Position numbers and translations under genes: made by a program. The notes under the pieces were generated by a model. It had not been told where the DNA came from. It was given only the letters and a program-made list of their open reading frames with translations, and did no database searches. This document shows positions 1-3,170 of a stretch of DNA of 64,000 nt, piece after piece (within the stretch, counting starts at the first letter, position 1; each line of letters begins with the position of its first letter). This DNA is from Escherichia coli. GTDB taxonomy: Bacteria > Pseudomonadota > Gammaproteobacteria > Enterobacterales > Enterobacteriaceae. The DNA lies in NCBI RefSeq assembly GCF_041886205.1, contig NZ_CP169030.1; one strand, given 5' to 3'.

Positions 1-293
1 GTTTCGGTTCTGCGCTGGACCGGGGTTTTTCTTGGTGGTTCTGTTTGTGTGTTGTAACTAAAGTGGCTCCGGTCGGGGCCCGCCGCTTGCGGTGGGAGGT
101 GCATATCTGTCTGTCCACAGGACAGGCAGTGAATAGGTTTTCTTTTTAAATGAATGTAATTAAGTAGTTTAAAGGAGATATAAACAGGTGTTTAAAAGAT
201 ACATTGCACCCTGTAAGGCTGGCGGCTGGCGCTTTATGACATGAACGGTTGTAACCTTATGAAGTAAGCGACTCGTCAGAACCGTATTGATAT

Positions 294-1865
294 TTACTGA
301 GAGCTCAGATCAACTTTCCAGGGCAACAGATCGCGTACCCGGTTTGCCGGCCAGTCCTGGATATGTTCAATGACGTAACGCAGCCACTTTTCTGGCTCCA
401 CATTGTTCAGACGGCATGTGCCGATCAGCGAGTACAACACCGCCGCATGTTCACCACCGCTGTCGGAACCCGCGAACATCCAGTTTTTCCGGCCTACGGC
501 CACTCCCCGTAAGGCGTTCTCTGCGATGTTGTTGTCGATTTCCACCCAGCCATTACTGCAGTACACGTTCAGTGCATCCCACTGTTTCAGCAGGTATGCG
601 AACGCTTTTGCCGTATCTGAGTGACGCGACAGTGTTTTCATCTGTTGCTGTATCCAGTCATACAGTGACTGCATCAGTGGCGCGGCTCTGGCTTTTCTTG
701 CCGCCAGACGCTGTTCTGCTGAACAGCCCCGGACCTCTGCCTCGATGGCATACAGTTCACCGATACGCTGCAGGGCTTCCGTGGTGATGTAGGTGGACGC
801 TCTTGCATGCACATCGTGGATTTTTCTCCGGGCATGAGCCATACACGCGGCTTCCGTTATTCTGCCGGATTCGTATAACGCCCGGTAACCACCGTAAGCA
901 TCGGCCTGAAGCACACCGCTGTAACCGGCCAGGTGATTTTGTGGATGGATACCTTTCCGGTCCGGACTGTACGCGAACCAGACCGCCGGGGGCATCTGTG
1001 AACCGGCGTTACGGTCATCACGGACGTAGACCCACAGCCGGGCTGTCCGGGTTTTACCGCTGCCCGGCTCCTGGACCGGGACGGGGATATCATCAGCATG
1101 GACTTTACCGGGCATCAGCACATACTGGCGCAGGACGTCATACAGCGGCTCCAGCAGTTCAGCAACAGCACCTGTCCAGCGCCCCAGTGTGGCACGGCTC
1201 AGCTCCACTCCCTGACGACGGTATATTTCTGACTGGCGGTATAACGGCAGATGGTCTGCATATTTCCCGGTGACAACATGGGCCAGAAGCCCCGCTCCGG
1301 CATAACTGCGTGCAATGGGTTTTGAAGGTACTGGTGCCTGCACGATATGGTCGCACCGGCAACAGGCCTGTTTCGGACGTTGTGTTTCGATAACCTTAAA
1401 GGCGCTGCTGATAAGCTCCAGTTGCTCTGACACATCACATCCCAGAGAACTGAGTTCACCACCACAGGCAGGACAGCATTCCTCTTCCGGCCGGATAACC
1501 CGGGTTTCACGGGGAAGTGAGGCCGGTAACGGTTTACGGGCTGAAGACTGGCGCAGGGCGGATGGCAGTACCGGGTCATATTGCTCACCCAGCGTTTCCG
1601 CCATTTCTTCCTGAAGTGCGCTGATTCGCTCCTGTGCTTCCTGTATCTGCCGTTCGGTTTTTGCACGAAGTTTTTCTGAGCTTTTACCGAACTGCATACG
1701 TTGCAGTTTCGCAACCAGCGCCTTCAGCCGGTTGATTTCGGAAGCATAAGCCGCCACCCGCTGTGAGAGCAGGCGGTTGTATTCAGCCATCTGGCGGATG
1801 GTGTCCTGTTGCGTCTGCAACAGTGCCCGCAGGCGGGCGTTCTCATGAGCAAGTGAGGTGTCCAT
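294..1865 (-). CDS. IS66-family transposase (TnpC/Orf3)
   Basis: 523 aa; N-terminal coiled-coil/leucine zipper, CxxC zinc motif and DDE region characteristic of IS66 transposases. Confidence 0.9.
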
Positions 1866-1884
1866 ATCCTCACTTTACAACGGG

Positions 1885-2232
1885 TTATATGCGGATTCCA
1901 GCGCGTTCCGTTCGTTTCGGGTGCTTCCAGTTGATACCTTCAAGAAGCATGGATAACTGAGCCGGAGTAAGGTGCACCTTGCCGTCACGGGTGACTGGCC
2001 AGACGAAGCGGCCCCGCTCCAGGCGTTTGGTGAAGAGGCACAGTCCGTCACTGTCAGCCCACAACACTTTTATCTGGTCACCCCGGCGTCCGCGGAAGAT
2101 GAACAGGTGTCCGGAGAACGGGTCATCCTTCAGGACGTTCTGAACTTTTGATGCCAGGCCGTTAAAGCCATTTCGCATATCGGTGATACCTGCAACCAGC
2201 CAGATACGCGAACCTGCAGGGAGAGATATCAT
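1885..2232 (-). CDS. IS66-family Orf2 (TnpB) accessory protein
   Basis: 115 aa, conserved IS66 Orf2 sequence (…WLVAGITDMRNGFNGLA…); overlaps orf1 stop. Confidence 0.9.
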   Translation of the reverse strand: MISLPAGSRIWLVAGITDMRNGFNGLASKVQNVLKDDPFSGHLFIFRGRRGDQIKVLWADSDGLCLFTKRLERGRFVWPVTRDGKVHLTPAQLSMLLEGINWKHPKRTERAGIRI

Positions 2233-2909
2233 CAGTGGCTGCTCCCTTTTATTTCGCGGATAAGTGTCTGTAATAACGCCGGCGTCAGTTTACCTTTAAG
2301 CCTGAGAGTTCCGGCCGGCAGAACCAGCTCACAACACAGACTGTCGGACGGTGTATTTATCTGCTCTGGTTCCTGTGCGGGGGCCGGGATTTTATTATCC
2401 GGCTCCGGCGTTAACGTCACGGGAAGCAGTGCCGGCATATTTTTTCCGGAAGGCAGCAGGCCACCTTTCCGGTATTGATGGCGCCAGTTGAAGAGCAGGT
2501 TATCGTTGATTCCGTTTTCCCGGGCGATCTGCGCCACACAGGCTCCGGGCTGCAGTGACTGCTCCACTAAGGCGATTTTAAACTCATAAGGGAAGTTGGG
2601 CCGCCGGGGACGTTTTTTTACCACGGGGGCTTCGGATATAACGGTGCTTTCAGGACGTACGACTGGTACCGTGGAAAATTGTCCGTAAAGGCAGGCATCA
2701 AGTTCCTGCTCCGACATGCCTGCGGGCAAAGGCCACGAAAGGCCAGCTCTCCGAAAGCGCACGAACATACTACAAACTGTTGATTTTGGTACACCCAGGC
2801 GACGCCCGGCCACAACCCGGGGTAAATGTTCTTCAAAGTGAAGACGTAAAGCTTCAGTGATCCAGGTCCGGTGTTTCATACGATAGTGTCCATTAAAAAT
2901 GATGGACAT
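2232..2909 (-). CDS. IS66-family Orf1 (TnpA-like, HTH) accessory protein; start codon uncertain
   Basis: Position upstream of and overlapping IS66 orf2; HTH-like segment. Confidence 0.7.
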   Translation of the reverse strand: MSIIFNGHYRMKHRTWITEALRLHFEEHLPRVVAGRRLGVPKSTVCSMFVRFRRAGLSWPLPAGMSEQELDACLYGQFSTVPVVRPESTVISEAPVVKKRPRRPNFPYEFKIALVEQSLQPGACVAQIARENGINDNLLFNWRHQYRKGGLLPSGKNMPALLPVTLTPEPDNKIPAPAQEPEQINTPSDSLCCELVLPAGTLRLKGKLTPALLQTLIREIKGSSH

Positions 2910-2959
2910 TATTTTTGTAGAGCCGGAGGAAACAGACCAGACGGTTTAAATGAGCCGGT

Positions 2960-3170
2960 TACCCTTATGAGGAAGTCCCTTGCAGTTAAATGTGGATAAG
3001 CAAAATTCCTCGTCTGTGAGGCGTGTTTTGTATCAAAAACAGGAGGGACCGGATGCACCTGAAGGTGGATGATGAGGTTGTTTTTTGTATGCGGTGCTGT
3101 TTTTTTGTTCGCCGACAGGCTTCAGGCGTGCAGATGCCTCCGGTGCGGGCCGGATTATTCAGAGGAGGTC
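2960..3170. other. oriR: Probable IncFII oriR region downstream of repA1 (contains DnaA box TGTGGATAA near 2990)
   Basis: Location immediately 3' of repA1 as in R1/R100; DnaA-box consensus; boundaries inferred. Confidence 0.4.

Follow-up and report, generated by a model that had tools for sequence, protein, structure and literature searches.

The stretch of Escherichia coli plasmid DNA considered here, referred to throughout as the window, is 64,000 nucleotides of one strand of contig NZ_CP169030.1 (assembly GCF_041886205.1), and it begins in an IncFII-family replicon whose origin of replication, oriR, is split by an insertion sequence (IS). The element, at 264-2962 on the minus strand, is by nucleotide identity and length a complete 2,699-bp copy of ISCro1, and a second replicon, of the RepFIA kind, lies towards the other end of the window. 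ISCro1 is an IS66-family element that was first named in Citrobacter rodentium and is common in E. coli plasmids.

Copies that the Prokaryotic Genome Annotation Pipeline (PGAP) names ISCro1 share 99.96% identity with that of the window over 2,702 nt; these PGAP-named copies and the published length serve here as a proxy for the ISfinder reference sequence. Its 2,699 bp is the length of 11 of the 12 other ISCro1 copies that were measured, the remaining copy being 2,700 bp, and is also the published length (PMC12115866). All three of its genes are intact, lie on one strand in the same direction as repA1, and give scores that clear the NCBIfam and Pfam cut-offs. The accessory genes tnpA (2232-2909, minus strand, 225 amino acids; NF038385, 295.8 bits against a cut-off of 150; Pfam HTH_Tnp_1) and tnpB (1885-2232, minus strand, 115 amino acids; NF033819, 128.9 bits against a cut-off of 50; PF05717) are upstream of tnpC, with the stop of tnpA and the start of tnpB overlapping at 2232. 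The tnpC gene encodes the IS66-family DDE transposase (294-1865, minus strand, 523 amino acids; NF033517, 478.3 bits against a cut-off of 180; PF03050 at 344 bits, PF13817, PF13007 and PF13005), in which zinc-finger, leucine-zipper and C-terminal IS66 domains are also matched.

The terminal inverted repeats (pair I5) are imperfect, 22 nt long and 73% complementary, and start with GTAAGCG and GTAACCG. The repeat at the tnpC end (264-285, GTAAGCGACTCG...) is the same end that abuts target duplications in other copies, and the repeat at the tnpA end (2941-2962, reverse complement GTAACCGGCTCATTTAAACCGT) holds a TCATTTAAA motif at 2945-2953. The transposase, the accessory genes and the GTAA-type termini together place the element in the IS66 family; the IS has been described before, and insertions of this kind are ordinary. 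An earlier note on this DNA had named the family correctly but gave the element a span, 255-3170, that is too wide, as 2963-3174, about 210 bp of non-IS DNA, consists of an 8-bp target repeat, 20 bp of origin, the DnaA box and the spacer between repA1 and oriR.

The genes of the interrupted replicon are all intact. The initiator gene repA1 (3175-4032, minus strand; TIGR03474, 581.6 bits against a cut-off of 446.9) encodes a protein of 285 amino acids, 284 of which are identical in RepA1 of p626A1-123K, a plasmid with an uninterrupted oriR. With it are the open reading frame (ORF) for the leader peptide tap (4500-4574, minus strand), the antisense RNA CopA (4592-4682, plus strand; Rfam RF00042, full length, 99.4 bits) and copB/repA2 (4808-5065, minus strand; NF010256, 134.1 bits), and the presence of RepA1, CopB, tap and CopA assigns the replicon to the IncFII family (RepFIIA type).

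Between tap and repA1 there is a further ORF of 160 amino acids (4025-4507, minus strand), which overlaps each neighbour by 8 nt and for which no family match was found in the Pfam or NCBIfam scans. From the overlaps, tap, this ORF and repA1 look like a chain of translational coupling. The earlier note had taken it as an insertion and a sign that the replicon has been remodelled, a suggestion that does not survive comparison: the ORF is annotated in many FIC-type plasmids and is absent from the classic FII replicons of three of the loci that were fetched (L003, L009 and L018). As it is normal in FIC-type replicons such as that of p626A1-123K, with its intact oriR, it is no evidence of decay, and on this sequence comparison it is best described as a feature of the lineage.

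In plasmids R1 and R100 a CIS spacer of ~170 bp follows repA, and this spacer is required for the cis action of R1 RepA; the R1 oriR then has its DnaA box at the repA end, ~100 bp of RepA-binding DNA, and AT-rich 9-mers at the far end. The window holds all of these parts. On the repA1 side of the IS is an intact spacer of 175 bp (3000-3174, minus strand), which aligns contiguously with p626A1-123K and which, from what is known of R1, we take to act as the CIS region, and next to it the DnaA box TTATCCACA (2991-2999, minus strand), which the IS has parted from the remainder of oriR. On the far side is the displaced distal ~150 bp of oriR (104-262, minus strand; the outer limit was set by counting 188 bp from the DnaA box), with the rest of the RepA-binding stretch and three AT-rich 9-mers TCNTTTAAA at 191-199, 168-176 and 145-153. 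The surroundings of the box agree with the primer sequences for DnaA-box1 of R1 (PMC5883639).

The IS has entered 20 bp downstream of the DnaA box, its end is 28 bp from the box when the target repeat is counted, and oriR is cut 37 bp from the start of the box. Therefore repA1, the spacer, the box and the ~28 bp with which the RepA-binding DNA starts are now 2.7 kb away from the remaining oriR. The earlier note had placed the IS within tens of bp of the DnaA box and had supposed that origin sequences were displaced, and both statements hold; its description of the IS as directly beside the origin is right as to nearness, but the element is inside oriR, and on the R1 layout it would sit within the RepA-binding stretch of the minimal origin. 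Downstream of repA1 every part of oriR is present, but the IS splits them and no contiguous oriR is found; the case that the note named as refuting it, an intact oriR contiguous outside the IS boundaries, therefore neither holds nor simply fails.

The 8-bp sequence CCTTATGA is found on both sides of the IS. The right copy (2963-2970) abuts the element, and between the left copy (255-262) and the IS end there is one extra A, at 263, which could be an insertion at the junction, the trace of a mutated 9-bp duplication, or a sequencing error. When the IS and one repeat were removed in silico, by joining 1-262 to 2971-3400, the resulting 692 nt aligned in one piece, with up to 98.8% identity, to uninterrupted repA1-oriR regions, and at least 4,960 records in PLSDB cover at least 80% of it. 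In a three-way alignment with p626A1-123K the two junctions meet at TCATAAGG. The event is a simple transposition with no deletion, in which, the extra A at 263 aside, an 8-bp target was probably duplicated. It had been proposed in the earlier note that the IS removed sequence on the origin side, for example repA4 or the terminus; this can be set aside for the sequence covered, as the flanks rejoin end to end exactly as in uninterrupted plasmids, and for repA4 and the terminus it reaches as far as the 262 bp of the window that lie beyond the IS.

Searches of PLSDB and of the 5,426 complete E. coli genomes in RefSeq did not find the exact junctions of the window, and the junction queries instead brought up plasmids with the same IS at other positions close by. 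The IS ends of these fetched loci were placed on the emptied sequence, numbered so that repA1 ends at 226 and the DnaA box is at 402-410, with the cut in the window falling between 438 and 439; an insertion is said to be in orientation A when the tnpA end is toward repA1, as in the window, and in orientation B when it is opposite. Starting from the repA1 side, pEM76 and pRKI3099b have the IS at ~314-322 (A), with the repA1 side lost. Three plasmids share 336-343, namely pSTEC719_4 (A, target CCTGAAGG), pGZM7a (A, CCAGAAGG) and pHNAH212872-1 (B); pGZM7a represents an independent event because both of its repeat copies carry a single-nucleotide polymorphism of the backbone. Further insertions are at ~346-353 in pA68_p1 (A), at 382-389 in pYSP8-1, pT28R-2 and ~25 more records (A), and at 415-422 in pRHB14-C23_2 (B). 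The target of the window, 431-438 (A), is used also in p14406-FII, in orientation B and with a perfect CCATAAGG duplication, and beyond it are STEC704 at 496-503 (B), pVTB420v-2 at 516-523 (A), MS 85-1 at 519-526 (A), STEC1099 at 529-536 (A) and GPEC1054 at 533-540 (A).

There are thus at least 15 independent ISCro1 events, 14 with mapped target duplications and that of the window, at 12-13 positions over ~230 bp of the repA1-oriR interval, and twice, at 336-343 and at 431-438, the same 8 bp has been used in opposite orientations. The balance of 11 insertions in orientation A against 4 in orientation B is, by our estimate, not significant. An ISCro1-like end occurs in 1,807 PLSDB records, at 2,980 places, ~42 of them within the interval, against an estimated ~6 for a plasmid of ~120 kb if every place is counted as an independent event. 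A particular case is that of three plasmids of Shiga toxin-producing E. coli (STEC) from goats of one region of China (NZ_CP041415.1, CP101952.1 and CP101970.1, each ~85.4 kb), with 100% identity between their emptied sequences over more than 1.2 kb; within the interval each has ISCro1 at a site of its own, the orientations differ, and two of the three have no other copy of the IS.

The only insertion within a gene found next to this hotspot is that of pHN68-1 (NZ_CP141845.1, typed FIA/FIB/FIC), where ISCro1 is inside the coding sequence of repA1 with the target GCACAAAA, equivalent to 3429-3436 of the window. In pEM76 and pRKI3099b an ISCro1-like element comes after the distal oriR, with no repA1 beyond the element and no target duplication, and these are remnants, the initiator side of the replicon having been lost through the IS. 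The plasmid pGN4554-3 was considered as a carrier and rejected, its IS being located between hok and finO. One IS thus seems to have landed again and again in a short stretch of the FII origin region. No description of this hotspot was found in a literature search for IS66 together with oriR or hotspot; it has been reported that ISCro1 mediates plasmid fusion from exactly this locus in pT28R-2 (PMC12115866).

Three observations, the density of events, the three sites in identical goat STEC backbones and the reuse of targets, point to a real regional target preference. We think it possible, and put it forward tentatively, that the repA1-oriR interval of IncFII/FIC replicons is an actively preferred target of ISCro1, in which case the cue may be the bent, protein-bound or unwound DNA of the origin, which is also the terminus of unidirectional replication. 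Mimicry of the target by the IS ends was considered as a basis for this and rejected: the left inverted repeat (IRL) end has no similarity to the target region, the right inverted repeat (IRR) end, whose TCATTTAAA is of the 9-mer type that recurs three times in the AT-rich part of oriR, has a similarity to these 9-mers that is weakly above chance (the observed value is reached in 11 of 300 shuffles), and for 16-mers there is no significance (82 of 100). A general attraction to related origins was likewise rejected, as pCT, an IncK plasmid of the same replicon architecture, has ISCro1 in its leading region.

The clustering could alternatively be the product of selection, if insertions land anywhere and those that silence a redundant FII origin in a multireplicon plasmid are kept or favoured. 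Selection for, or tolerance of, FII silencing would explain an association that is seen throughout: all 17 carriers of ISCro1 at this locus that have been replicon-typed (16 with the IS in the interval and one with it in repA1) also have FIB and/or FIA, a count taken over the carriers themselves. The insertion within repA1 of pHN68-1, which also inactivates FII, speaks for the same reading. However, of the PLSDB events six are in the 212 bp made up by the spacer and proximal oriR and one is in the adjacent 368 bp of repA1 (binomial estimate p ~0.01, counting events within reach of the same search), the goat STEC plasmids have gained the IS at three sites in one emptied sequence, two of them with no other copy, and identical 8-bp targets have been reused in opposite orientations twice, all of which counts against selection. 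We therefore regard selection as the sole cause of the clustering as somewhat doubtful, though by no means negligible.

The repE gene of the second replicon (62575-63330, minus strand; NF010305, 534.4 bits against a cut-off of 342) is flanked by 19-bp RepFIA iterons, five at 63431-63543 and two at 62409-62514, seven matches where 0.28 would be expected by chance, and sopA and sopB are at 59850-61996, as judged from ORF translations and position. With RepE, flanking iterons and sopAB all present the RepFIA replicon is complete, at 59.8-63.6 kb, and being intact it is probably the working replicon of the plasmid. As a separate observation, 39001-64000, comprising the leading region and the RepFIA part of the window, has at most ~94% identity to any PLSDB plasmid, and therefore the collections searched contain no representative of the plasmid backbone.

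The RepA protein of R1 has a strong preference for action in cis, and the minimum origin has been defined as an oriR of 188 bp. DnaA-box1 is within this 188-bp oriR1, and DnaA binds the box only when RepA is bound immediately downstream (PMC5883639). Because an R1-type RepA acts in cis and DnaA binding needs RepA just downstream, the FII origin of the window is, by analogy with R1, probably crippled or silent. In the sequence of events that we propose, ISCro1, with its TnpC DDE transposase and TnpA and TnpB, would have transposed straight into an IncFIC(FII)-type origin, duplicating CCTTATGA; repA1, the CIS spacer and the DnaA box would then have been parted by 2.7 kb from the remainder of the RepA-binding DNA and from the AT-rich 9-mers of the unwinding region, the origin would be crippled or silent, and RepFIA would maintain the plasmid, whilst the FII control genes may still exert incompatibility. 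The multireplicon state of all typed carriers is consistent with such insertions surviving only in plasmids that have another replicon. A carrier with FII alone was sought among the 17 typed carriers and none was found; pT28R-2 is given as F18:A-:B- in its paper, but MOB-suite types it as IncFIB+IncFIC. We are fairly confident of this explanation as a whole, that is that ISCro1 split the FIC(FII) origin without deletion, that the origin was probably silenced, that RepFIA maintains the plasmid, and that the event is one of many such.

Several points weigh against it. Mini-R1 with a scrambled DnaA-box1 continues to replicate, at a higher copy number (PMC5883639), and therefore oriR is not necessarily disabled when the box alone is lost. 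The insertion may be recent, as its copies are near-identical and its target repeat near-intact, and therefore little can be read about selection from an intact repA1. The repeat itself is imperfect, with its extra A at 263, unlike those of the 12 other ISCro1 copies examined, all of which have perfect 8-bp duplications directly abutting the IS. Furthermore, the window covers part of the plasmid only, and the multireplicon count was taken over the carriers themselves.

The mini-R1 result is also an argument that the FII origin of the window still fires, which would need the distal ~150 bp to suffice, RepA to reach it from 2.9 kb away, and DnaA to be recruited without the box. Within the displaced ~150 bp the RepA-binding DNA is for the most part retained, as is each of the three AT-rich 9-mers, RepA1, tap, CopA and CopB are all intact, and the IRR end next to the DnaA box brings a TCATTTAAA motif of its own. 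We nevertheless think continued firing unlikely, given the strong cis action of R1 RepA, the definition of the 188-bp oriR as a minimum, and the presence of another replicon in every typed carrier; moreover several of the sister insertions split the AT-rich 9-mers themselves, and therefore their carriers do without the FII origin. It is very improbable that the junctions are an artefact of assembly or of recombination between IS copies, with no transposition at this site, for although the exact junctions are absent from the databases and the left one has an odd extra base, the 8-bp repeat is the same on either side, the two flanks fit together precisely as a known contiguous sequence, IS-IS recombination would leave no matching repeats, and the perfect duplication at the identical 8 bp in p14406-FII, in the opposite orientation, shows the site to be a genuine target.

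The element of the window is in keeping with known ISCro1 in its 2,699 bp, its tnpA-tnpB-tnpC order, its GTAAGCG and GTAACCG termini and, with the left copy offset by one base, an 8-bp repeat at its target, and differs only in its insertion site, not found in PLSDB or RefSeq E. coli, and in the 1-nt irregularity of its left junction. The replicon likewise follows the IncFII pattern of R1 and R100 in the order copB, CopA, tap, repA1, 175-bp spacer, TTATCCACA and three AT-rich 9-mers; unlike them it is an FIC-type variant with the extra ORF of 160 amino acids, and its origin is split by 2.7 kb after the first 37 bp. A parallel is found in the F plasmid, where RepFIC, an FII-type replicon, is inactivated by Tn1000 and RepFIA maintains the plasmid. 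Both are multireplicon F-like plasmids with a mobile element in the FII-type replicon and repE, ori2 and sop intact, but in F the transposon is in the coding or control region, whereas in the window the genes are intact and it is the origin DNA that is split. Repeated entry of ISCro1 and other IS into one short non-coding regulatory stretch has also been described for the afa/dr regulatory region of E. coli ST131, an IS integration hotspot (PMC8764528); there several IS types enter at a single position, and here one IS type enters at at least 12 positions over ~230 bp of a replication origin.

Two further RNA features are present beyond the replicon genes. Rfam matches the sok antitoxin RNA of a hok/sok module and an antisense RNA, 'AS-pc02', at 5488-5644 (minus strand) and 6642-6754 (plus strand), the 'AS-pc02' match being between the replicon and finO.

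Typed by its replicons, this plasmid would be scored as having an FII/FIC replicon, the origin of which is physically split. RepFIA probably governs its replication, copy number and host range, and CopA and CopB may still cause FII incompatibility. If ISCro1 does target the interval, it would be an unusual case of regional target preference in the IS66 family. ISCro1 would in that case serve multireplicon F plasmids as a natural switch, thrown repeatedly, by which the FII origin is silenced, and such targeting would help to explain how such plasmids shed redundant origins, and why ISCro1 is found where plasmid fusion is possible (PMC12115866).

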